This document shows, piece by piece, positions 15,240 through 63,590 of a DNA stretch of 64,000 bases. The stretch is from Eledone cirrhosa (Eukaryota). The notes below the pieces were generated by a model that saw only the letters and a program-made list of their open reading frames with translations, was not told the DNA's origin and did not search any database. Numbering within the stretch: position 1 is the stretch's first letter; every line of letters starts with the position of its first letter. Position numbers and translations under genes: made by a program. The stretch is from the NCBI GenBank assembly GCA_964016885.1, contig OZ024740.1:127472001-127536000 (forward strand), read 5' to 3'.

Positions 15240-18255
<3,016 letters not shown>

Positions 18256-18273
18256 TCAATTAGTGATGTACAA

Positions 18274-19017
18274 CTCCACACACAACCCCCTCAACAATGA
18301 GGCCTTTGACACCATCCTCCAGAACATCCCTGTATTGAAAAAGGACCATAGAATGAACCCAATTCTACGAACACACGATATCATAAAGAGCAAAAGACAA
18401 TTCAAGTCAATGAAAAACATCTTAACACATGCCAAAGTACTGCCAACCACAACAACGAAACCCACAGTAAAAAAAATGCGATAGACCCAACTGTGGCATT
18501 TGCATCAACCTAATAGAGGGTTCGGAATTCTATTTCAAATATGGACAACGTTTTATAGTAAAACACAATTTCACATGTGCATCGGAAAATCTAATATATG
18601 TATTAACTTGTTCAGGTTGTCGAGAACAATACATAGGCCAGACCAAAAACAGCCTCCGCCAACGCATGACTGTCCATAGATCCCAAATTAAAATACGGAA
18701 ATACAGGAAAATACCACTGAGTGAACACATTGATACCTGTGCCGCCCAAAATCATCCCAACTTCAGCATCTTTCCCCTCTACCAATTTAAAGATAATGCC
18801 ACCCACACCCAGCGCATCAGCAAGGAATCTTACTTCATTAACAAATACGGACCCCGTCTAAACACTTCTCCCTAAGACAAACCCACAACATACACACGTC
18901 AACATACATACCTACATCAGCACACATCTCTACCCACATATAAACACAATGACACACGTAAACACACATGCTCTATGGTGCAATACAAAGAAATATATGT
19001 GCAGATATATGTATGTA

Positions 19018-20299: not shown

Positions 20300-20988
20300 A
20301 ACAATTTAAATAACCAACAATTTAACCTAAAATGGGATATAATAGTGTTTGCCCCTGCATAGTCCCAAGGACAGGAATTTGAAAATTGTGTAATATGGAA
20401 TTATTTTGTATTATGAAATACAAAAATATGTTATTAAATAAGAGAATAGAGCGATCGTTATACTGTAACCATCGCTGGAAATCTACATTTTCATATTACA
20501 AACGCTACCAGGATTGAACGCATGTCTCCATCTCCGTTTGATTGTCAAAATACATATTAACATTCTCTATTAGTCTTAATTCTATTAACTCTTCTATTTT
20601 TTACCATTTAATATAAACTGCTATAGATAAAATGAGATTTCTTAATTCAATTCCCTAATGCAGGCTACCAGCATTGTTGTTATACAGTAGCAGTAAAATC
20701 TCCCTCTTCCTTAATTGACACTTTATATCTGTATTAATACTACTACACCAAACGACCAGCCCTGTCCATTGTTCAATTGGTCAAATATAGATTAAAATAG
20801 GCACTCCCAAAAATTCTTATTTAGATAAAATAAGCCATATACTCATTGTATTCTCATTAAAAACCTTCTATATACTTGTTTACCAGTAAATTGAATTGCC
20901 ATCTGTCATATACTATCCCCTCTCTTCTTCCTTTCTTACAACTAATATAAATACTTCAATTTTTCTGCTTTTTTTCCTATTTATCCAA

Positions 20989-21107
20989 TATCTCTGAAGA
21001 AGTGACAACTGATTATACATTTGCTATCGAATACTTGCTAACATTATATGATTACGCAAGCAGCGATACATAGGTATTCCGTCTGCTACAGAAACATATG
21101 TCCATAG
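20989..21107 (+). ncRNA. Hammerhead ribozyme with 90-nt expanded stem II (5' pLTR)
   Basis: CTGAAGA(20994)-a-gtgaca...tgctac-a-GAAA(21091)-catatg-TC. Palindromic stem III ACATATGT; stem I is degenerate. Confidence 0.65.
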
Positions 21108-21313
21108 CTAATAAATTCCTTTATAAAAGCACTTTCATTTTATATTCATCTTTTCTACATTTTCTCCGGAATATAATTTATACTCGTTGAGCAAACCTAC
21201 ACGTACGCTGTTCATCTCTAACGTGACGATATATTATCACTACATTATTGATAACTTGAAATTTTAATAATCTCCTATACAGTTGAGCAACTAATTCAGC
21301 ATACGTCTCTAAA

Positions 21314-23621
21314 ATGGAAAGGCACGAATTGGATATGTCGTTAAAAAACACCTATTCAGGCAAAAAAGGAATATATTCTAGGTATGATACGAAGGATCAA
21401 TGATTTTATTCGACGAATCATATGGAAAACATTCTATTTTGACAAAAGCTGTATAAACCAAACATCGGATCTTAACAAGGATAAATTTGGATTTAAATCT
21501 TACAAAAACCCACCCTCAAACCCACTTTTGGATGCATTTGAACAAGACCTAATGGATATGATCATGGAGATCAAATTTACAAAATAGAAAAACAATAAAC
21601 TACAGAATGACATCACGGCACTGCTCAATAATCTAAAAAACGCCAATGGAATTATTGTTAGAGCAGACAAAACATCAAACGTATATACCATGGATGTGGA
21701 CACTTATAATAACTTCATCCGTAAGGAATTGTATAAAAAATACAAGAAAACTACTGAAGCTACACTTAAAAACATCAACAACTCGGCATGTGAAATTGTT
21801 AAAAAACTTTGTATTGACGATAGAACGCAACCCTTAACACCAGCTACACCATCCTTCAACCTGAAGGACCACAAGGTAAACTTCGATACTGACCCTAAAA
21901 TTAGACTTATATGCCCCTCTAAATCTGATACAGGCAAAATTAGCAAATATATACTAGACAGAATTATCCCCCAAGTTAAGGCTAAAGTAGATATTAAACT
22001 ATGGGGTAACACCCATGAAGCAATAAGATGGTTTAATAGCATTACTGATAAGAAGAAATTAAAATTTATTCAGTTCGATATTGATGAATATTATTCCTCA
22101 ATCTCACCTGATACTCTGCGTGAAGCTCTTTCGTTCGCTAAGGCTAATTCCGACCTTACGGATGATGAAATTAGTATTATTATGGAAGCGAGGAAAACTA
22201 TTGTTAAATTTGATGATAGCTACTGGGTTCGCAAAGATAGACCTTCTAATTTTAATATAACTATGGGTTCCAATGATTCGGCGGAAGTAACTGATCTTGT
22301 GGGAATTTATATCACCCACAGACTACAAGGAACATTCAAGGATCTCCATGGTGGACTCTACCGTGACGATGCGCTCCTATTAGTTAAGCATATGAATAAC
22401 CACAATTTAGAAAGGATGCGTAAAAATAGTAGAAAGCTTTTTAAGAAACTAGGATCAAATATTACGTTTGAATATAACCTCAAAGAGGTTAATTTCCTTG
22501 ATGTTACTTTGAATCTCAATACAGAAACGATTAAACCGTTCCATGAACTAAATGAGAACCTTAAATATGTAAATACGGGTTCTAACCATCCACCCTCTAT
22601 AATTAAATCGATCCCTAGAAATATTTCCCTTAGAATCTCCCGCGTGTCGTCCAACCAGCAAACCTTCAAAGAACATGCCGAATATTATGATGATGCACTT
22701 AGGAAGGCTGGACACCTAGATAATATAGAATATATAGTCGACGATCACCAAAACACCCAAAATGAATCTCATAGAGGTAGAAATAGCATAGAATCACCAC
22801 CATACATACACTACCGCAATATACACACTAATTGTCGCACACCACCAAACAGAAGGAGATGTAAAGAGTATATATGGTATAACCCGGTCTATAACAACTC
22901 TATTAAAACCAATCTACCCTCACAATTCTTTCGATTAGTTAAAAAACACTTTCCAACATAACATAAATATAATAAAATCTTAAACCCTAACACTATTCGA
23001 CTTACATATTCAACCGCCCCTAATATTGAACAACATATAAAAAAGCTTAACGCAAAACGGTTGTATAAACGCCTTCCAACACGTAAAACATCGGCTATAA
23101 CATCAGAAAACAACAAACAACATCCAGTCCTGCCTAAGCAACCTCATCAACCCATCCATGCTAATACAACAACGCAAAATTATAACTGTAACTGTGTCCA
23201 ACCAGGAATGTGTCCGTTGAACAATCAGTGTCTTGAACGCAACATCATATACAAATGTACTATCGAATCGGGTAACCTGAATTGGTACTATGTGGGGTCT
23301 ACAGCTACCTCATTCAAATGTCGCCTTTATAGACATCGTTACTCGATAAAACATGAAAACCAGCATTATGTAACAACACTTGCAGACAAGGCTTGGCAGC
23401 TGCACGAAAATAATAACCAACAATTTAACCTAAAATGGGATATAATAGTGTTTGCTCCTGCATATTTCCAAGGACAGGAATTTTGTAAATTGTGTAAAAT
23501 GGAATTATTTTGTATTATGAAATCCAAAAATATTTTATTAAATAACAGAATAGAGCGATCGTTATACTGTAACCATCGCTTGAAATCTACATTTTCATAT
23601 TACAAACGCTACCAGGATTGA
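21314..23621 (+). pseudogene. PLE RT-GIY-YIG polyprotein (~770 codons) with one early frameshift and two premature stops
   Basis: MERHELDMSLKN(I)P...; KDHK..F...PKIRLICP; FIQFDIDEYY; ITMGSNDSAE; GLYRDDAL; VNFLDVTL; IWYNP; CNC..CPL..CL; YYVGST; CKLC; CNH. Track ORFs 21384, 21690 and 23061 share one frame; stops at 21585 and 22959. Confidence 0.92.
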
Positions 23622-24091
23622 ACGCCTGTCTCCATATCCTTTTGATTGTCAAAATACACATTAACATTCTCTATTAGTCTTAATTCTATCAACTCTTCTA
23701 TTCTTTACCATTTAATATAAACTGCTATAGATAAAATGAGATTTCTTAATTCAATTCCTTAATGCAGGCTACCAGTATTGTTGTTATACAGTAGCAGTAA
23801 AATCTCCCTCTTCCTTAATTGACACTTTATATCTGTATTAATACTACTACACCAAACGACCAGCCCTGTCCATTGTTCAATTGGTCAAATATAGATTAAA
23901 ATAGGCACTCCCAAAAATTCTTATTTAGATAAAATAAGCCATATACTCATTGTATTCTCATTAAAAACCTTCTATATACTTGTTTACCAGTAAATTGAAT
24001 TGCCATCTGTCATATACTATACCCTCTCTTCTTCCTTTCTTACAACTAATATAAATACTTCAATTTTTCTGATTTTTTCCAATTTATCCAA

Positions 24092-24186
24092 TATCTCTGA
24101 AGAAGTGACAACTGATTATACATTATATGATTACGCAAGCAGCGATACATAGGTATTCCGTCTGTTACAGAAACATATGTCAATAC
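24092..24186 (+). ncRNA. Hammerhead ribozyme with expanded stem II (3' pLTR; 24-nt internal deletion)
   Basis: CTGAAGA(24097)-a-gtgaca...tgttac-a-GAAA(24170)-catatg-TC. Confidence 0.65.
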
Positions 24187-24231
24187 CTAATAAATTTCTT
24201 TATAAAAGCACTTTCATTTTATATTCATCTT

Positions 24232-24660
<429 letters not shown>

Positions 24661-26858: not shown

Positions 26859-29200
26859 TATACCCGCAACCCCCACCCGAAGGACCATAAGGTAAATTTT
26901 GACTCTAACCCTAAGATTAGACTTATATGCCCTTCTAAATCAGACATAGGAAAAATTAGCAAACATATACTTGAAAGAGTAATAACTCAATTGAAAAAGA
27001 AAATAGAAATTAGCAAACATATACTTGACAGAGTAATAACTCAATTGAAAAAGAAAATAGAAATTAAATTATTGGGCAACACTAGCGAAGCAATTCGCTG
27101 GTTTAATATCGTTAAGAACAAGAATAAATCTAAGTTTATACAATTTGACATAGACGAATACTACTCTTCAATCTCACCCGGCACTTTACGCAAGGCCCTA
27201 TCATTTGCTAAAGTCAATTCCGACCTAACGGAGGACTAAATCAATATTATTCTAGAGGCTAGAAAAACTATTATCAAGTTTGATAACTGCTACTGGGAAC
27301 GTAAGGACAGACCCACAAACTTCGACATTACCATGGGTTCCAACGACTCAGCGGAGGTCACCGATCTTGTGGGAATTTACATAGCCCATATACTACATGG
27401 TATACTTAGTAATCTACAGGGGGGAATATATAGAGATGACGGGCTCTTATTAGTTAATAACTTAAATAACCAATTGAAAGGCTACGGAAAACATTAGAAA
27501 ATCTTTTAGTGAACTGGGTCTAAAAATAACGTACGAATACAATCTTAAAGTAGTAACTTTTCTAGACGTAACTCTTCCTCAAGATAAATGACATCCTTAC
27601 CTATATCAATTTTAACTCAAACCACACACTTTCCATGATCAAATCGGTTCCCCGTAGTATTTCTCTTAGAATCTCTCGCCTATCGTCTGACTCTGAGATT
27701 TTCAGTGAACATGCTGAATACTATAATAATGCATTAAGGAATGCCGACCACCGGGATACAATAGAATACATTGCTAAGAATCTCCATAACACACACAGCT
27801 CTACACGAAATCAAAGAATACGTAACCGGGGTACTGAAATACAAGCGCACACACGCAGTACCACCAGACATACTAATAATAGAAAAATCATCACCAAATA
27901 AATCACGTTGTAGAAAGTATATCTGGTATAATCCCATTTTTAATGCTTCGATTAGTAGAAAACTATTATTTCATTCTTTAAGTTAATCAACAATCATTTC
28001 CCTAGATCCCATAAATACAGTAAAATTCTGAACTGTAAAACTATTAAACTATCATACTCCACGGCACCAAACCTTGAAGCATCTACCACTACCTCCTTTA
28101 AATCTCGCTGGTATCGTCATCGATTCTCAATTAAACATCCTAATCACCGTTTTGTGACCACGTTCGCCAACAAGACCTGGCAACTCCGTGAACGCAACCA
28201 ACAGTTCACCTTGAAATGGAATATACTTTCCAGCGCTAGTGCATATCGAAGTGGATTGAAGTACTGTAGGTTATGTAACCTTGAACTATTTTACATCTTA
28301 AAATCCCAAAATAAATTACTAAATGATAGAATCGAACGATACTGCAACCACAAACTGAAGGCTAAATTCTCTCACTATAAAATAACTTAACATTCGAACC
28401 CGTAACTATGATATTGCTTTCTAGCTAACCACTTTCTCTTCCCCCACACTACAAGACAATACCATGCTTATCACTATAAATGGAAACTTAGTGCAATTTG
28501 TAGCCTACTACTATGAACTCAATGTACACCCTAACCCAGAGCTGTCGTCTGTCTCCTCTCTATCTGTCCCTCTCTATCCATTCCCCCCTTTCTCTCTCTC
28601 GCCCTAGGTCCACCTCCCTCCCTCTCCACATCCATGAACCTGCCATCTGTGGCAATAAATAATTCAAACCTTGACTATCAACGCATCGCTTAAGGTGGTC
28701 GCTTTAAGTGTAACCATTATAAAAAAAACCCTACCACAACATTTTGATTAAGATATCTACAAACCACTCTCTCCCATTTCTCCAACCCCTGCATATCTCT
28801 CCCCCTCTCTCCCTCTCCCCTTCTTTTCTCTCTTCCTTTTCTACTCTATCTTCCCCAATAACCTCACTTAAGGGTATTTACATTGTACATTTTAACCATT
28901 CTGCTCTGATGATACAGTGGTCACAGCATTTGATAATTGAGTTTTGCAAATAGTTATAAATTTACACATCGCATAACTAGGCTGTATAACCAACGTGGAA
29001 ACATTTGTAAGCACACAGAATACATTACCCTTTTATGATGTCTACCTGTTATTATTCATTCTTTATCTACACTCCGGAATACAGAAAAATCAGGAACTGA
29101 GTTTATTCAACTATTATTCCATAACTCGCTGAGTAACCTCTCACCGTACGTCAACTCTATCCAGTGTAGTAATTAACCATTACTGCATCCAGGATAATCC
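26858..29200 (+). mobile_element. 5'-truncated, internally deleted Naiad-type PLE
   Basis: [55 protein letters not shown]; stops, frameshifts and a deletion near 28080; starts inside (TA)n. Confidence 0.9.
28902..29013 (+). ncRNA. Hammerhead ribozyme with 85-nt branched stem II
   Basis: tgct-CTGATGA-[tac..tggt..acagc...gctgt..acca..gtg]-GAAA-catttg-TA-agca; stem I tgct/agca. Confidence 0.8.
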
Positions 29201-29243
29201 TATATATATATATATATATTTATTTATTAAAATAACAGATTAA

Positions 29244-29294
29244 AGTTTAAGCAAAGAATCGCTGCTTTCACCCATAACGGGATCTTCTGAAACT
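29244..29294 (-). ncRNA. Variant hammerhead (CAGAAGA core)
   Basis: agttt-CAGAAGA-t-ccc gttat ggg-t-GAAA-gca..tgc-TT-aaact. Confidence 0.65.
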
Positions 29295-30358
29295 AACAAA
29301 GTCAATCTGTAAACGCAGAAGTGAATATTTCAAAAAACGTTGCAACCGGAGGAAGACAGGAAGACGATATTTGGTTCGTGGAAACGTTCCCTATGCAAAT
29401 AAGTAAAGGAATAAACAAAACCTATACTTAGCTCCCACATCAAGACGTAAAATATCCACGTATAGATCGTACTATCCGTTAGGGTATAACGTAGGGCTAT
29501 AATACAGGAAAGTGTTGTGCAATTTATGTTTACAAGCCGAAATTGCCTCAGATTTTTTGTTTAAGATGTGGTCTGTGGCGTAGAGTATTTCCAGGGCCTC
29601 AGCGGCGCAGAGGTCACATGGTCTTTTATTTCCGTTATACGATCTAGCCCTAGCTAGGATCTCCCAGTGTAACTTATATTGGGTGTGGTTGTCTTTTAGA
29701 CTTTAGATATAAGCTGAAAGTGACGTCATATTCCTTCTTAGAGGGTAACGAAAAGAATGGGTATGCATGTAAAGACGCTGCTTGAAACTATTGGCGGTTA
29801 ACCCTGTGTAGGCCCTACGGGACGTGGGTGTTACAACCTTACATTTGTAGACAATGTTACTAGAGAGGCATTTCCCGGATAGGGGGCAATCAGCGCGATT
29901 CCTACAATTACAGTTAGTACTAACTACTGGGTTGCACGTGTTCCTACGGCTAGGTAGTTTAGCTAAATTTGAAGCTGTGATGTTATGTGCAAGGTTAGGA
30001 GTCGTAGAATCAGAAATGTTAATATTTACTATATTTATGTGTAGGGGGAAAACGCTTCGTAATAAGGGAAAGAAAGATCTTAGCTAAAGGTGTGGCCATC
30101 TCCATATTATATGGTGGATTATACCAACAAATGCGACGGGATCTATTTCTTCTAGGTCTATTTCCGTACTCTGTATAATCTACCTTATCGACAAATCCAC
30201 TTCGAGCAAGAGCTTCATTGTAATAAGTGGAATGGTCGTTGAAAATACGCTCGTTAGTGGAAAGACTGGAATGCCTCAACGAAACGTTTCTTACCAGGTT
30301 CTTGGTTATGCAACGTTTTTTGAAATATTAACTTCTGCGTTTACAGATTGACTTTGGT

Positions 30359-30409
30359 AGTTTCAGAAGATCCCGTTATGGGTGAAAGCAGCGATTCTTT
30401 GCTTAAACT
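30359..30409 (+). ncRNA. Variant hammerhead (CAGAAGA core)
   Basis: Same motif as 29244-29294 in the opposite orientation. Confidence 0.65.
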
Positions 30410-30703
30410 TTAATCTGTTATTTTAATAAATATTTGCTCTACGGTTCTTATATATTTGATATATATTTATCCTTATCGCGCCTCTTTGGATTTAAGTCTT
30501 CAAATTTATTATTATTACTATCTATCTATATATATATATATATGAATACAATTAGTCCTTCATCAGTGATCTTCCAACCTTGATTGGTATTGCAACGGAA
30601 AGATAGGAAGAGACAAGTACATAATATCTGTAAGCTTAAGCTTGGTGAAATCATGGAAGAGAGATACACACCATCCGACATGGGTGAGATGGGAGCAAGA
30701 AAA

Positions 30704-34251: not shown

Positions 34252-36508
34252 GGGAGACATGATAGGAAGCATAAAAAACACTTGTGAGCAGTGAAGTTTT
34301 AAATCAACATATGTTGATTTAAAACTTCACTTCTACAAAGAACATACTCATACCAAGCAGGAAAACTCCTGATACAGAAAACAGACGCGTTCATTAAAAG
34401 GTTGCGTGGGCGTGCCTTTTATTTCGATAAGCAGCGAAAAGCAGACAACAAACAGGATAAATTTGGGTTTAAAACCTATAATAACCCTGCGTGTAACCCA
34501 GCATTGCTACCCTTCGTAAATGATGTCTCGGAACTCATACGGAATATCAAATTTCGGAATAGGAACAATTCCTTCCAGCAGGACCTGAAGAATAATATTC
34601 GTTCTATTAAAGATTCTAATGCCGTGCACGTCCATTCCGACAAAACTGGCAACCTATATCAAGTGGAGTGCAGTACTTACCATCAACTACTACATAATAC
34701 TGTAACTAAGGATTACCGTAAAACTAATCGGTGCGTTATTAATGATATCAGCGATGCTGGCTTTAAAATCACCTCTTATCTCAACATCCTGGACCGGACC
34801 GAACCTCTGGACCCTATTTCTCCCCACTTTACCCTGAAGGATCACAAATCCAATTTTCCGAACAACCCCTCTATTCGGCTTATTAACCCTACGAAGTGCG
34901 ATTTAGGTAGACTTAGTAAAAGGATTCTTGATAGAATTATACCTGAAATTAGAAGTTCGGCCCCTCTTGCACTGTGGAACAATTGTTTCGCGGTGATTGA
35001 TTGGTTCAACGGCATATGCAACAAGGAACATTGCCGTTTTATCCAATTCGACATCAATAATTACTACTCCTCCATCACTTTACCACTTCTCCTTAGAACT
35101 ATCAATTTCGCTAAAACACTCACAGTGGTTAAGGATTTCGAAGATGATGTCATCCTCAATGCCCGTAAGTCGGTGATTATTTTCGACGACTCTATTTGGA
35201 TAAAAAAATCAAATAGTACCTCATTCGACGTGCGTATAGGCGCCAGCGATTCTGCGGAGATAACTGATCTTATCGGCCTTTTCCTTATTTTCTCTATCAA
35301 GGACAAATTCCCCAATGTGGGCGGTGGTTTGTACCGTGATGATGGTCTTTTGACCATGACTAAATGCGGCCCAGTTGCTTGCGACAGGTTCAGAAAATAA
35401 CTCACAGCCTTCTTTAAAGGCTTCAACCGCTCTATACAGGTTGAGGCCAACCTCTCGGTCGTTAATTACCTCGACGTTACCCTCAATTTATCGAATGGCT
35501 TGTATTATCCGTATAGAAAGCCAAATGATACGCTTAATTACATAGGTAAGCATTCTAACGTGCTGCCAGCATAACCAAGAACCTGGTAAGAGACGTTTCT
35601 TTGAGGCTTTCCCGTCTATCTACTAACGAGCATATTTTCAATGACAAATTCCACATATTACAATGAAGCTCTTGCTCGGAGTGGATTTGTCGATAAGGTA
35701 GCATACACAGAGTACGGGAATATACCTAGAAGAAATAGATTCCGACGCATTATATGGTATAACCCACTATATAATATGGAGGTGGCCACACCATTAGCTA
35801 AGATCTTTCTATCCCTTATTACGAAGCATTTTCCCCCTACACATAAATATAGTAACATTTTTAATAGAAATACTATTAAAATGTCTTACTCTACGACTAC
35901 TAATCTTGCACATAACATCACAGCTTCAAATTTAGCTAAACTACCTAGCCGTAGGAACACGTGCAACGCTGTAGTTAGTAATAACTCTAATTGTAGGAAT
36001 CGGAGTGATTGCTCCCCATCCGGGAAATGCCTCTCTAGTAACATTGTCTACAAATGTAAGGTTGAAACACCCACGTCCCGTAGGGCTTACATAGAGATAC
36101 CCGCCAATAGATTCAAGCAGCGTCTTTACATGCATACCCATTGTTTTCGTTAGCATCTAAGAAGGAATATGACGTCACTTTCAGCTTATATCTGGGGTCT
36201 AAAAGACAACCACACCAAAATATAAGTTAAACTGGGAGATCCTAGCTAGGGCTAGATCGTATAACGGAAATAAAAGACAATGTGACCTCTGCGCCGCTGA
36301 GGCCCTGGAACTGCACTACGCCACAGACCACATCTTAAACAAAAAATCTGAGGCAATTTCGGCTTGTAAACATAAATTGCACAACGCTTTCCTGTATTAC
36401 AGCCCCACATTATACCCTAACGGATAGTACGATCTATACGTGGATATTTTACGTCTTGATATGGGAGCTAAGTATCGGTTTTGTTTATTCCTTTACTTAT
36501 TTGCATAG

Positions 36509-37251
36509 GTAAGTATATATTACCTGTATGTTTTGTGAAGGTACGTATACTTTCTCGTACGTATATTTTATTGTATATGCTATGGCGTATATTTTATATA
36601 TTCTGGTACATATGCTTTTGGTTATGTGTATACGTGAGCTTTGCGTCTGTGTGAGAATGCGGGTTCGTAGTATGTAGGGTGTGTATATGTGTACTTCGTG
36701 TATTGGTTGACGTCGTCTCCGAACATATGTGTATTTACCTCAAGGTATGTGTGTGCGCTTCTTATATACGTATTTATTTATTTATATACGTTTATTTAAT
36801 TATTTGTATACACGCACACACACACACACATATGTATATGTGCGTGTATTTGTATATCTATGGTGAATGTCTTCGCGTATGCTTGTGTATGTACGTATAT
36901 GGAAGCGTGTATGTATTTATTTATTTCAATTACCTCTGTATTTTATTTACTTTATTCTTAACTCTGAAGCCGAGAATAATTCGGTTTCCTAGTTAGAATT
37001 TTAGTCTACGACTTCAGTTATACCATTTACGTGGTTTTGTCTTTGCGTGCAATTGTTCTCCACGGTCCACATATGACGTATTATCTTCGTTTTTTCCGTT
37101 CATTGCCAGAGAACGTCTATATGAACCACCTAAGAGAATATAGTCTACGACTTCTTTTATACCATAAACGTGGTTTTGTCTTTGCGTGTAATTGTTTTTC
37201 ACCGCTTCAAATAATGACGTATTATATTCGTTTTTTCCCGTTCTTTGCCAG
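36509..37251 (+). other. 743-nt spliceosomal GT-AG intron in the PLE 3' UTR/pLTR
   Basis: catag|GTAAGT ... ttttttcccgttctttgcCAG|ggaacg. The paralog at ~29385-29395 (minus) reads catagggaacg, the exact spliced junction. Confidence 0.9.
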
Positions 37252-37348
37252 GGAACGTTTCCACGAACCAAAGTATCGTCTTCCTGTCTTCCTCCAGTTG
37301 CAACGTTTTTTGAAATATTCACTTCTGCGTTCACAGATTGACTTTGTT

Positions 37349-37399
37349 AGTTTCAGAAGATCCTGTTATGGGTGAAAGCAGCGATTCTTTGCTTAAACT
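37349..37399 (+). ncRNA. Variant hammerhead (CAGAAGA core)
   Basis: Third copy of the motif, ~100 nt downstream of the intron acceptor. Confidence 0.65.
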
Positions 37400-37512
37400 T
37401 TAATCTGTTATTGTCATTTTAATAAATATTTGCTCTACGGTTCCTATATATTTGATATAAATTTATCCTTATCGAGCCCTCTTTGGATTTTAGTCTTCGA
37501 ATTTATTATTAT

Positions 37513-37572
<60 letters not shown>

Positions 37573-48198: not shown

Positions 48199-48784
48199 AA
48201 GGTAAATAAGGTTTTGTTTATCTACACTCTCGACCATATATTGCAAACGTCAAAACATTCATCTATAACAGTGGTCAAAGAATAATTGTTCCACATCACA
48301 GCACTCATATTGATAATGTGAAAGTATTTACCTCCACACCCTCTCCTTTTAACTACTCTCTCTACTATCACACTAACTTACTGTAATTATTCTATGTTTA
48401 TTGTCATAAGTGTTGCATATGATTGAACAATATCTATTGTATTCAGCATATGTAGACAATTGTAATAGACACAGAAACATATGTTAAAGCAAATATATTC
48501 CAAATCTCCTTTCTCGCCGATCATTATATTTTTCTTGGTGCAGTACTTGTTTATATTATATTATATTATATATATATATATATATTTATTAAAATAACAG
48601 ATTAAACTTTAAGAAAAGAATCGCTGCTTTCACTCTTAACGGTTATTTGATATATATTTATCCTTATCAAGCCCTCTTTGGATTTTAGTCTTCAAATTTA
48701 TTATTATTACTATATATATATATATTTCGTTTCTGAATTTGTTTAGCAAGATTCTTTATCTGAAAACGTGTGTTGAAACCGATA

Positions 48785-50115
48785 TTATTATACTTTGGGA
48801 GGGTCATATTGCCAATAAGAAACACACGCACCAGTTGCTTTCACTTCAATTTATTATAATAAATTTATAAATTTAGGAATTTATAAATTTCCGGTTGGTT
48901 GGTTGGTTCCACAACCAGATGGTTGTTTATATATTGTCAGAGTTCTTTCGTCACACATTCTGTGACCTCTTCAGTGACTGGGAATACTTTTCTTTGTTTT
49001 TGTGCCTCTCCTTTGTTCTGTCCTACGCCATCTTGTTTCTGTGTGTGTGTTGTGTACTCAGTCTGCGCATGCGCCACATCCGGGTGTCTGTGTGTGTTTA
49101 TATTCGTTTATTTATTTGTTTGTTTACAGGTTACAGGTTGGTTGTTTGTTGTATGTGCGTGTGTGTTTTCATTTTGTCCTTAATTTTAAGTTGTGATGTT
49201 GCTGTTCCACTCATGTTTTCTATTTAATTTTGGTTGTAATTCTTTTATGTTTATTGCCTCTGTGATTTGTCTAAACATTGCATCTTTTCTGTGTGTAGAT
49301 TCTATTTTTATTTCTATGTTCTCTAATTTACCCTTATCTTCTATTTTAGCATGTTGGTAGAGTACAGATGATTCTTTACTATCTTGAAGGTCTCGCCAGT
49401 GTTCATGTATCCGTTCCCCTACACTACGAGCTGTCTCACCTATGTACACTATATTTTTGTCTCTACATTGTCCTTCAGTACATCTTATGCTATATACTAC
49501 ATTTCTAGTTTTACAGTTAATATGGGGGCTTAATTTACAGGTTATACATTTCTTGTCTATACAGGGGGTCTTTGAAAAGAGTATGTCTTGCTAATAAGTT
49601 TTTTTACGGAGCTACCTGGTCTTTCTACTATCTTAATATTGAGTTTATGTTTATCTAGGGCCCTTCTAAAATTGTAAGCTAATTCACCTCTAGGGGTTGT
49701 ATCGATGAACATTACACTCTGATATTTATTGCTATCTTACCATGAGTTTATTCTATTAGCCTTATTCCTAGTTCTTTCTATTCTATTCCAAAATTTGCTC
49801 CTATACAAGAGGCAGGTCCCATTTGTGTCATTATTTCCCATTTTTTCCCATTTGGTTCTGGCTCCTCTATACACTCTGATTTTATCTCTCTGATTGGAAC
49901 CAGAGAACTGCATACGGTGGATGAAGTGTTGTATGTGTCTCTCTAGTTCTGCGGGGTTGCACATGCGGGACACGTTTCTCATCACCCGTACCAAATCCGC
50001 AATCAGTATGTTGATTTTGGTATGGTCCGAAACAGCTGAGTTTCGGTGGATCAGATATTTGGAAGTCATGGTTTTGGCATAATGGGAATGGAGGATTTGT
50101 TTTTTGTTATTAATA
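48785..50115 (-). mobile_element. Nematis-like PLE 3' half (RT thumb + GIY-YIG), left arm of an inverted pair; HHR at 48936-48978
   Basis: ORFs 49737..50069 and 49186..49449 (YIGETARSVGERIHEHW...RQITEAINI...LNRKHEW); gtca-CTGAAGA-g gtcaca/tgtgac-GAAA-gaac-TC-tgac. Confidence 0.85.
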
Positions 50116-50126
50116 ACATACCAAAA

Positions 50127-51360
50127 TAAAAATACTGATTGCGGATTTGGTACGGGTGATGAGAAACGTGTCCCGCATGTGCAACCCCGAAGAACTAGAG
50201 AGACACATACAACACTTCATCCACCGTATGCAGTTCTCTGGTTCCAATCAGAGAGATAAAATCAGAGTGTATAGAGGAGCCAGAACCAAATGGGAAAAAA
50301 TGGTAAATAATGACACAAATGGCCCCTGCCTCTTGTATAGGAGCAAATTTTGGAATAGAATAGAAAGAACTAGGAATAAGGCTAATAGAATAAACTGATG
50401 GTATGATAGCAATAAATACCAGAGTGTAATGTTCATCGATACAACCCCTAGAGGTGAATTAGCTTACAAATTTAGAAGGGCCCTAGATAAACATAAACTC
50501 AATATTAAGATATTAGAAATACCAGGTAGCTCCGTAAAAACACTTATTAGCAAGACATACCCTTTTCAAAGACCCCCTGTATAGATAAGAAATGTATAAC
50601 CTGTAAATTAAGCCCCCATATTAACTGTAAAACTAGAAATGTAGTATATAGCATAAGATGTACTGAAGGACAATGTAGAGACAAAAATATAGTGTACATA
50701 GGTGAGACAGCTCGTAGTATAGGGGAACGGATAAATTAACACTGGCGAGACCTTCAAGATAGTAAAGAATCATCTGTACTCTACCAACATGCTAAAATAG
50801 AACATAAGGGTAAATTAGAGAACATAGAAATAAAAATAGAATCTACACACAGAAAAGATGCAATGTTTAGACAAATCACAGAGGCAATAAACATAAAAGA
50901 ATTACAACCAAAATATAAATAGAAAACATGAGTGGAACAGCAACATCACAACTTACAATTAAGGACAAAATGAAAACAGACACGCACATACAACAAACAA
51001 CCAAACTGTAACCTGTAAATAAACAAATAAATAAACGAATATAAACACACACAGACACCCGGATGTGCCGCATGTGCAGACTGAGCACACAACACACACA
51101 CAGAAACAAGATGGCGTAGGACAGAACAAAGGAGAGGCACAAAAACAAAGAAAAGAATCCCCCAGCCACTGAAGATGTCACAGAATGTGTAACGAAAGAA
51201 CTTTGACAATATATAAACAACCATCTGGTTGTGGAACCAACCAACCAACCGGAAATTTATAAATTCCTAAATTTATAAATTTATTATAATAAATTGAAGT
51301 GAAAGCAGCTGGAGTGTGTGTTTCTTATTGGCAACATGACCATCCCAAAGTATAACAATA
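50127..51360 (+). mobile_element. Nematis-like PLE 3' half, right arm; decayed HHR at 51165-51207
   Basis: Reverse complement of ~48785-50010; C..KKCITC...NCKTRNVVYSIRC...YIGET. Confidence 0.85.
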
Positions 51361-51366
51361 TATATA

Positions 51367-59518: not shown

Positions 59519-61157
<1,639 letters not shown>

Positions 61158-61159
61158 GT

Positions 61160-63075
61160 TATAAAATTTATATATTTTATAGATCCATCTGTTATATAGT
61201 TGTGAATGTTAAAATATGAGTTTGTTTACTATAACGTCTTAATATTTAAAGTTTTTCTTAAGAATATATCTAGAGCATAAACCGTAAAATAACCTTTTTA
61301 CATGAGTTCATTCATAGAATGCATTCAAAATTATACATTTCGATATTTATAGACCCACATATACATAGATATACATACATGGATACGCACATATACACAC
61401 ACACATATACATATATACACATACATATACAAATATACATATATATATATAAATACAAAATATATACTATAAAATAAAATAAATATGTGAGTTATAATTT
61501 TAAACAGGATTATAATTTTAAAAGGAATTACAATTTTTAAAAAGGAATTACAATTTTTTAAAAATATAATTATATAATTTTAAAAGGAATTATATTTTTA
61601 AGCAATGTAATTTTTAAGCAATATAATTCCAAAAATATGTAGCTTTTAAAAAATATATATAAGAATATATAGAAAAAACACAGTATGAAATATGTATTAT
61701 AACTTTTTATATATCCATCAGAGGAATTAACCCCAAAAAGCCTCTTTTTAAAACTTTCAGTATGTTTATCTTAATTTTTTATATATCCATTTTTTTTTAA
61801 AACTTTAAGTATGTTTATCTAGAAGAATTTTCAAGTAAAAAATGTTCCTCATTTAAGAGAGTTTTTGGCAGTCGTACGAAGGAATCTAGTGATTTATCGA
61901 TAGGTTTAATAAGATGAGCTATATATTACATTTTAAATTTATATTTAAACGTTGAAATCAATCTATGTTTGCAGCAACTGAAAAGATTGTTCCTTAGATT
62001 CACAGAATTTTTGCTCTTTAATATAAAGAATATTTCCTCTATACAAAGAGCACAATTTTCGGAAGAAGAATTGAATGGAGGAGCTTTGGGGGTAATATTC
62101 CAAAGTAAATAATCGTTAATGTTCTTTAATTTTAGGTCCCATAATAAGCTAGATGGAGAAGAATTTTTATTTATATTCGTAAAAGAGCATTTATGGTTAT
62201 TAAAACGAGATTTGAAGTCTGTGGAAGTAGAACCTATATAATTAAATGAATTTAAATTAGTTTTTACATTACTATTATATACTATATTTTTAGCTAAACA
62301 ATTGTTATTTAGCGGAGAGTTATATTTGTTTCTACAGTTACATTTATCAAAATTCAAGTTACTAGGAGCCGTGTTATTAAATTGGATATTGCTGGTGTTG
62401 TTAATGGTATTCTGGTTAGGTTTTAAGTTTCTATTATTAATTCTATTACTATTCTGCGCTAAATTACTGGTGGTTGAATAAGTTAATTTTATAGTATGTC
62501 TATTAAATATTGAGTAATATCTATGTGTTCTAGGGAAGCATTTGTCAAGAGCTTTAAAGAATAGTTTAGCTATAGGAGTTTTAATATTTAATGAGAAAGG
62601 AAGAGAGAACCATAATATATTCCTAGTTCTATTTCTTTTTTTGTTTATCGAATTATTGTAAGGTTTTCTATTATAGTTGTTAACATTGTTAAAATTATGG
62701 TTAGTTGTTATATTATTATTATTATCAATGTATTTAATTTTATTACTATATCCAGGTCTACCTAACGCTTCGTTGTAATATTGCGCTTTATCAAAAATAT
62801 TCTTATTAGCTGAAATTCTAGAAATGCGTTGCTGTACAGAATTTACTATAATATGTTTAATTGATCTGGGGTGATTGGAGTTAAAATTAACGTAGTTTAA
62901 GTTCTCGTTTAATTTGTGTAATGGATAATGAAGACATGTGTTAAGGTTTAAGGTTACAACTAGAAAGTTAACTATTTCATAATTATTCTCTATTTCTACT
63001 TTAAGATTAATGTAATTAAAAAATTGTATAATTTCTTTACTTTTCCTATTTAATTCACAGTTATTAATTCCAACA
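61160..63075 (-). mobile_element. AT-rich Naiad-type PLE 3' half plus UTR
   Basis: ORF 61926..62357 CNCRNK..PLNNNCLAKNIVY...YIGSTSTDFKSRFNNH...CALC...CKHR; upstream NFLVVTL and CFPRTHRY remnants. Confidence 0.88.
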
Positions 63076-63565
63076 AACTATTAATGGATTTGGAAAATGA
63101 AATCATCTTAATCATTCAAAACATTATATTTAAAAAAAAGACTTCATAGGCCATGATTACTTAAGAAATCTCAAAAGTAATATTGAAAACTTGGAGAAAA
63201 CGGAAAAAATTCTAGTAAAGTCGGACAAAAACAATAATATTTATGGAATGCAGAAGGATATTTATAACGATCTTATATTAAATGAATTAAGGAAAAAATA
63301 CAAAATAACAACTAATGGCGACCTTGAAAAGTTGAATACAGAGGCTTCTTACATAATGCAGGATTTAGGCATTGAAAATAGGAGACAACCCTTCATGCCA
63401 AGGAAACCAAAAATTAATATGAAGGACCACAAAAAGAAATTTGAAATTGACTTACCAGTAAGATTAATTGCACCATCTAAACCCGACCTTGGCATACTTA
63501 GCAATAACATTTTAGACAGAATAATACCACAATTTAAGGAATTATCTTATTTAAATTTTCCTGAA
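63075..63565 (+). mobile_element. Naiad-type PLE N-terminal RT fragment
   Basis: ORF 63191..63577 KSDKNNNIY...KDHKKKF..PVRLIAPSKPDLG. Confidence 0.8.
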
Positions 63566-63590
63566 CCTAGACGATGACACACTAATATCC

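Follow-up and report, generated by a model that had tools for sequence, protein, structure and literature searches.

Likely reverse transcription of both unspliced and spliced sense RNA in a Hydra-clade Penelope-like element of Eledone cirrhosa

Introduction

A Hydra-clade Penelope-like element (PLE) of Eledone cirrhosa carries in its terminal repeat a 743-nt segment that is likely a spliceosomal intron, and the sense RNA of the element appears to have been reverse-transcribed mostly before, and sometimes after, its splicing. The genome holds some 350 arms joined exactly at splice signals, in four forms, which indicate that spliced sense RNA is likely usable as a template; use of the ordinary sense RNA as template would help to explain how the intron normally survives. 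The reason why PLEs retain introns through an RNA cycle is stated to be unknown in the relevant part of PMC8557442; the occurrence of pseudo-LTR introns, and their retention, are themselves already documented. An antisense template was proposed in the relevant part of PMC3846280 to account for both intron retention and head-to-head arms, with an unspliced sense template left open as an alternative. The present findings bear on this question, and the family yields counted predictions that RNA-seq and a marked-element assay could address. The stretch of DNA analysed (the window) comprises 64,000 nt, and positions below refer to it.

Two copies of the element in the window

Copy A (34331-37516, + strand) is a decayed, intron-bearing element of lineage H1, which lacks the first 22 nt of the ORF and is followed directly by (TA)n. 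Its ORF remnant (34331-36427, + strand), interrupted by stops and frameshifts, contains an RT (DKT, YRDD), a CxCX5C linker and, at its C-terminus, GIY-YIG, and ends in the stop codon TAG at 36425-36427. The GT-AG intron (36509-37251, + strand) extends from donor 1 (GTAAGT) to the main acceptor, with CATAG/GTAAGT at 36508/36509 and a pyrimidine tract followed by CCAG/GGAACG at 37251/37252. The main arm of copy B (29216-30311, - strand), which is 5'-truncated and of lineage H5/H6 in the ORF, reads CATAG/GGAACG at its junction (29391/29390), an exact donor 1 join. By self-BLAST, copy B aligns to copy A on the two sides of the junction with 91% and 94% identity, and at base level the 743-nt segment of copy A is exactly absent from copy B, as the earlier note had described; its placement of the intron between the stop codon and the hammerhead also holds for the hammerhead-like motif found at 37334-37407. 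The short inverted head-to-head arm of copy B (30309-30543, + strand) contains only the downstream exon and is uninformative on splicing. A tiny head-to-head insertion (48562-48725) consists of the 3' end of the same family.

The intron contains all of the U2-type signals, namely a GT donor, a branch-like motif, a pyrimidine tract and a YAG acceptor. The sequence TAATGAC, which we take to be branch-point-like from the usual consensus, lies with the pyrimidine tract and CAG acceptor at 37212-37251 (+ strand). A second donor (donor 2, GTACGT, 36541-36546, + strand) is found in other copies joined to the main acceptor with removal of 711 nt, and an alternative acceptor lies 4 nt upstream of the main one (the -4 acceptor, exon start 37248), where some lineages have TTAG but copy A has TTTG. 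The intron region also contains an internal tandem duplication (37002-37270, + strand; units 37002-37128 and 37141-37270, 85% identical), the upstream unit of which carries an acceptor-like AG at 37108-37109. In the 3' UTR (36428-36508), the frame stays open for 26 codons past the stop, with a second TAG exactly at donor 1; the same stretch is also readable as a pyrimidine tract followed by CATAG/GT, resembling an acceptor fused to a donor.

Copies A and B belong to different sub-lineages, and a common source for the two was rejected, as they represent different lineages with short shared patches. In copy A, the alleles ahead of the donor (36441-36492) form a B-type patch, and copy B carries A-type alleles past the junction, in the stretch matching 37252-37322. 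The two copies share 5 of A's 42 rare alleles, the median for other loci being 0. These patches may stem from gene conversion between the inverted neighbours or from assembly polishing.

Assignment to the Hydra clade

The earlier note had assigned the family to Naiad, wrongly in view of its C-terminal GIY-YIG, DKT and CxCX5C motifs. Naiad elements carry GIY-YIG N-terminal to the RT, have DKG changed to DKA and have a main body of 3.4-4.4 kb. Here, the ORF starts with MQKQHLN and leads straight into the RT, with GIY-YIG at the C-terminus, the motif is DKT, and the unit measures 2,508 nt when spliced and 3,221-3,309 nt with the intron. By its motifs and by-eye comparison, the element is assigned to the Hydra clade. 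It has a single ORF with GIY-YIG after the RT (IVYKC..AYIGLT, by eye), SDKTG, RLRWR (R replacing the K of RWK), the linker CNCRNRADC, and CxxC and CxH around conserved E and N residues (CDLC..E..N..CKH), with no CCHH; insertion is into (TA)n. The N-terminal RT region is similar, by eye, to the Hydra-1_Obim supplement sequence. Pfam (five proteins) and PDB searches gave no significant match, and the domain calls thus rest on motifs. The Hydra-1_Obim-type C-terminal EN+ PLEs, as described in the corresponding part of PMC8557442, have the same RT with C-terminal GIY-YIG, DKT, CxCX5C, CxxC and CxH; the element here has RWR for RWK, and (TA)n targets and a length of about 2.5 kb without the intron are also alike. 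Neither a 743-nt terminal-repeat intron nor spliced copies appear for the Hydra clade in the text and supplement rows of that paper. In tandem copies the ORF begins about 300 nt past the acceptor. The 3' ends of copies fall at 37405-37435 or 37480-37500, and these two common zones (37412-37500, + strand) are likely where reverse transcription starts.

The canonical hammerhead expected near the 3' end of Hydra elements is not present. In its place is a type I hammerhead-like motif (37334-37407, + strand) with a non-canonical core (CAGAAGA ... GAAA), compared with the ctgaagag listed for Hydra-1_Obim in the supplement rows of PMC8557442. Three helices (I-III) can be drawn, with a U-U pair closing helix II, and 229 of the 232 copies have A at core position 4. 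An Rfam scan of 28500-49500 returned no hammerhead among 146 matches at E<=5, which were mostly simple-repeat matches to miRNA models. It had also been suggested in the earlier note that splicing could affect folding of this ribozyme. The motif lies 82 nt from the acceptor, and median helix probabilities were <=0.18 both in 69 unspliced and in 81 spliced contexts; the suggestion, unsupported by these low values in both contexts, was therefore dropped.

Joined copies across the genome

Because AGG is repeated at both ends of the intron, copies A and B alone cannot separate splicing from microhomology deletion, and counts were therefore taken genome-wide, in the window's own 3.0-Gb assembly (G000). 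The exact 21-25-nt patterns used count arms rather than insertions and miss mutated copies. By these patterns, 6,132 intron-side acceptors compare with 355 joined arms. Joins of donor 1 to the main acceptor number 81 with G and 168 with C as the first exon base (reversed-pattern controls gave 0 for both), while donor 2 is joined to the main acceptor in 85 exact arms, donor 1 to the -4 acceptor in 21, and donor 2 to the -4 acceptor in one (L294), such that all four combinations of two donors and two acceptors are present in the genome. Donor 1 is retained in 2,683 arms, donor 2 joins included. The joined share is about 5.5% counted at the acceptor and about 12% counted at the donor. Donor 2 and the -4 acceptor were first seen among the first 100 of 1,102 matches anchored in exon 2, a set that left out the majority unspliced letter by design and whose proportions are not those of the family; loci for inspection were picked by sequence pattern and not at random.

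Short-read contigs (X1/X3) contain the same 743- and 711-nt GT..AG joints, which, as these contigs may derive from the assembly's own sample, is evidence against assembly error only. Four contig sets of unrecorded kind contain DNA-type joints only. In run X5, from a second organism, contigs cover both exons and the intron, mostly at 90-99% identity, with no splice-site joint among the matches listed. Also among the matches listed, at least six identical exon-2 matches lie about 60 kb apart (one gap of 105 kb) at G000:C1:143349981-143691461, which suggests a large tandem segmental repeat.

Splicing or deletion at short repeats

Deletion at the DNA level through microhomology, or template jumping by the reverse transcriptase at AG/AGG repeats, could imitate splicing, and AGG is indeed common to donor 1, donor 2 and the acceptor in G-type lineages. 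However, the commonest join (168 arms) shares only AG between its ends, without AGG microhomology, and the duplicated upstream acceptor, which offers the same AG and is carried by 4,539 arms, is used in 0 exact joins genome-wide; its use as an acceptor was accordingly rejected. Random deletions near the intron ends could be read as GT..AG in only 45 of 14,400 cases. Low-depth joints do exist elsewhere in the short-read contigs, but those between the 85% identical internal repeats have a depth of 11-44, compared with 143-729 for joints at the splice sites, and other internal deletions in the inspected arms are each unique. The earlier note had named variable deletion end points as evidence against splicing; variation was found only between splice-signal positions.

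All 10 of the inspected intron-bearing arms with a new TTAG 4 nt upstream have the marker 37322G, as compared with 0 of 92 intron-bearing arms with a new AG for the other marker allele, and the marker is enriched in -4 joins (9/20, versus 16/125 donor 1 joins, p 0.0016). The remaining 11 of 20 -4 joins are without it, and in view of the 0/92 these require a non-AG acceptor or unsampled sources. That some -4 joins come from lineages in which no new AG was seen is a further point in favour of deletion or template jumping, which we nevertheless consider highly improbable as an account of the joins. The pattern as a whole reads as exact removal at splice signals with alternative site use, as in a U2 spliceosomal intron.

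Origins of the joined copies

Joined copies have many independent origins. Exon-only trees reject a single clade of joined copies (158 rows, p 3.6e-5; 190 rows, AU p 2e-8), with weak resolution in the trees themselves (6 of 187 branches starred). Six haplotype lineages were distinguished (343 arms, 78 of them unassigned), each of which contains both forms, and lineage H2 alone contains all four joins (30, 32, 4 and 1 arms). Among the 343 arms, joined copies have no alleles that the other copies of their lineage lack, and joined copies at different places share rare alleles at 0.18 per kb, versus 0.20 and 0.22 for other pairs.

An alternative is that splicing gave rise to only a few intronless copies (one or several for each form in a lineage), which were then amplified as secondary sources, most joined copies being made from intronless DNA. 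Consistent with this, the joined share depends on the lineage, being 1/100 among the first 100 of 1,550 matches for one lineage and 21/97 among the first 100 of 1,583 matches for another, a difference that might reflect intronless sources indistinguishable in sequence from the majority of their lineage; full tandems without either intron (L335, L336) also exist, and the same form would be predicted in both arms of an insertion. The lack of alleles private to spliced copies, the lack of excess rare-allele sharing among them, the several forms inside haplotype H2 and the existence of mixed tandems (L322 and L330) all stand against it, and it would still need spliced sense RNA as the initial template. 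We regard amplification from secondary sources as decidedly unlikely, and independent origins as the better reading.

Neither a comparison of two copies nor label counts on unrooted trees give the direction of change, and the intronless form might be ancestral, with the 743-nt segment inserted later. However, the segment is partly retained in donor 2 joins (its first 32 nt) and in -4 joins (its last 4 nt), so that both derive from the long form, and every lineage carries this segment, at about 95% identity to its majority. The partial joins practically rule out intron gain, and loss of the segment is the direction adopted here.

Lineage H6 (e.g. L151-L166) is the least diverged, with a median of 0.8% from its own majority, and has very few joined copies. 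In this lineage donor 2 is changed to GTATGT, and the branch-to-acceptor spacing is 2 nt shorter.

One template for both arms of an insertion

The inspected loci contain 85 head-to-head pairs, with the same joined form on both arms in 34, 10 and 5 pairs and both arms unspliced in 32. Three had a truncated partner and were set aside, and one apparent mismatch (L385) was rejected as a discordant pair since it looks like two neighbouring insertions. Four other candidates for discordance were also rejected, L078 and L115 being short joined arms and L213 and L279 being donor 2 joins. Thus the same form is present on both arms in 81 of 81 clean pairs. With independent templates, a joined arm would be paired with an unspliced one in about nine of ten cases, and the agreement of the arms therefore points to one template giving rise to both. 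Arms at one place share rare alleles at 3.7-6.5 per kb, which could also come from later gene conversion. Of eight direct tandems, four have both units unspliced (L169, L172, L180, L256), two have both spliced (L335, L336), and two combine a spliced upstream unit with an unspliced downstream one (L322, and L330 with a rearranged body); the order unspliced upstream and spliced downstream was not found among the eight.

Likely transcription start and position-dependent splicing

The 5' ends of copies pile up 16 nt before donor 1, at TTACTT (36493-36498, + strand), where transcription likely starts. Arms starting at 36491-36497 comprise 14 of 136 donor-1-joined arms and 0 of 114 unspliced arms, the unspliced sample being biased against such starts. 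In matched genome-wide patterns at 36493, the counts are 10 of 249 donor 1 joins versus 9 of 2,683 donor-retaining matches (p 8e-7). Inspection confirmed a true start at TTACTT for each of the 10 joined arms; the nine donor-retaining matches comprise 4 clear starts, all unspliced, and 5 internal deletions or jumps. Thus 10 of 14 arms starting at TTACTT are spliced, compared with 8.5% overall for donor 1, and the 4 clear unspliced starts, with about 1.9 expected, are too few for a pile-up of their own. Four of the 10 joined arms (L422, L424, L430, L431) have an extra TAC or TTAC just before the start, as if the reverse transcriptase had slipped at the RNA end. From the pile-up base to the ATG of the ORF, one spliced leader contains 0 upstream ATGs and three unspliced leaders contain 19-23. 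Most joined arms extend far upstream into the ORF, which implies that the downstream intron is sometimes spliced too. The contrast in start sites points to splicing that depends on position.

A proposed replication cycle

These observations can be assembled into a cycle in which transcription would start 16 nt before donor 1, and the intron would act as a 5'-leader intron, removal of which clears 19-23 upstream ATGs and gives a translatable RNA. The RNA would run through the ORF into the downstream repeat, where the same intron lies 81 nt past the stop and would usually be retained, possibly through slow splicing near the RNA end, or possibly through decay, which as a general rule befalls RNAs whose junction lies over about 50 nt past the stop. 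Reverse transcription would begin internally, downstream of the hammerhead-like motif; initiation in the leader would give short, predominantly spliced copies and initiation in the 3' repeat long, predominantly unspliced ones, with a single template giving both inverted arms. Spliced copies would mostly be dead ends, such that the family is carried on by intron-bearing sources. This Hydra-clade family may solve the problem of PLE intron retention, with all copies made from sense RNA, the intron mostly removed in the 5' leader and mostly kept past the stop, one RNA serving both arms, and spliced copies as dead ends; we consider this full account to be evenly poised between right and wrong. If true, the intron persists without any antisense template.

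In the competing proposal, two templates are used, with joined copies made from spliced sense RNA and intron-bearing copies from antisense RNA, as hypothesised in the relevant part of PMC3846280. This would explain retention in the intron-bearing majority without slow splicing. However, spliced and unspliced arms have the same two 3'-end classes (99/88 versus 72/62) and the same head-to-head build, mixed tandems place both states in one insertion, and, as a weak point, 4 unspliced arms start at the spliced pile-up base. The existence of spliced head-to-head pairs also means that this build can arise from sense RNA. For the spliced copies at least, the evidence speaks against explaining PLE intron retention by an antisense template, and we view the use of two templates as unlikely. 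The earlier note's proposal of both spliced and unspliced RNAs as templates is, by contrast, strongly supported by the splice-signal end points, the 168 joins without AGG microhomology and the many origins.

Comparison with known systems

In Penelope of Drosophila virilis, according to the relevant parts of PMC2377424 and PMC4209133, a pseudo-LTR intron likewise lies soon after the transcription start, upstream of the hammerhead and ATG, at a start-to-intron distance of 46 bp, as compared with 16 and 48 nt here. Its intron is 75 bp rather than 743 nt long, and its acceptor abuts hammerhead helix I (PMC4209133), whereas the distance here is 82 nt. The leader intron is spliced to give a translatable RNA (PMC2377424); spliced and unspliced RNAs both exist, and no genomic spliced copies in several forms are described in those parts of the two papers. 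Chlamys-3_cRei also has an intron in its pseudo-LTR/5'UTR that is alternatively spliced (398 and 751 bp), but belongs to an N-terminal EN clade, and in the part of PMC8557442 that covers it the forms are seen as RNA and are not reported as retrotransposed copies. For the Poseidon element PAc of Anolis, the relevant part of PMC11167929 describes internal RT starts near the leader/ORF junction, two 3' ends defining a tail, and extension of both strands, which fit the leader-only copies and paired arms here; that system was studied in vitro without intron analysis, and the 3' ends of the present copies precede the ATG.

A literature search found no paper describing PLE copies in a genome that are repeatedly and alternatively spliced, nor do such copies appear in the relevant part of a 2026 retrozyme preprint, and they may be new, pseudo-LTR introns themselves being known; the wording in PMC2377424 that 'the majority' of PLEs have introns makes an earlier mention of intronless copies possible.

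The closest general parallel lies outside PLEs. Processed retrocopies lose introns exactly at splice sites and can freeze alternative forms in DNA. Here, by contrast, the element would copy its own RNA, about 90% of copies retain the intron, and the copies have (TA)n ends and inverted arms.

Other related elements in the window

A second Hydra-like element (20309-24239) has an 850-bp direct pseudo-LTR (20309-21160 and 23412-24239, 94% identical); by eye it has no obvious GTAAGT donor on the + strand, and it carries a CTGAAGA motif without a clear GAAA. More decayed Hydra-like RT/GIY-YIG fragments are present at 26875-28390 and 60081-63577, and other GIY-YIG fragments are arranged in inverted pairs at 17599-18875 and 48782-51361.
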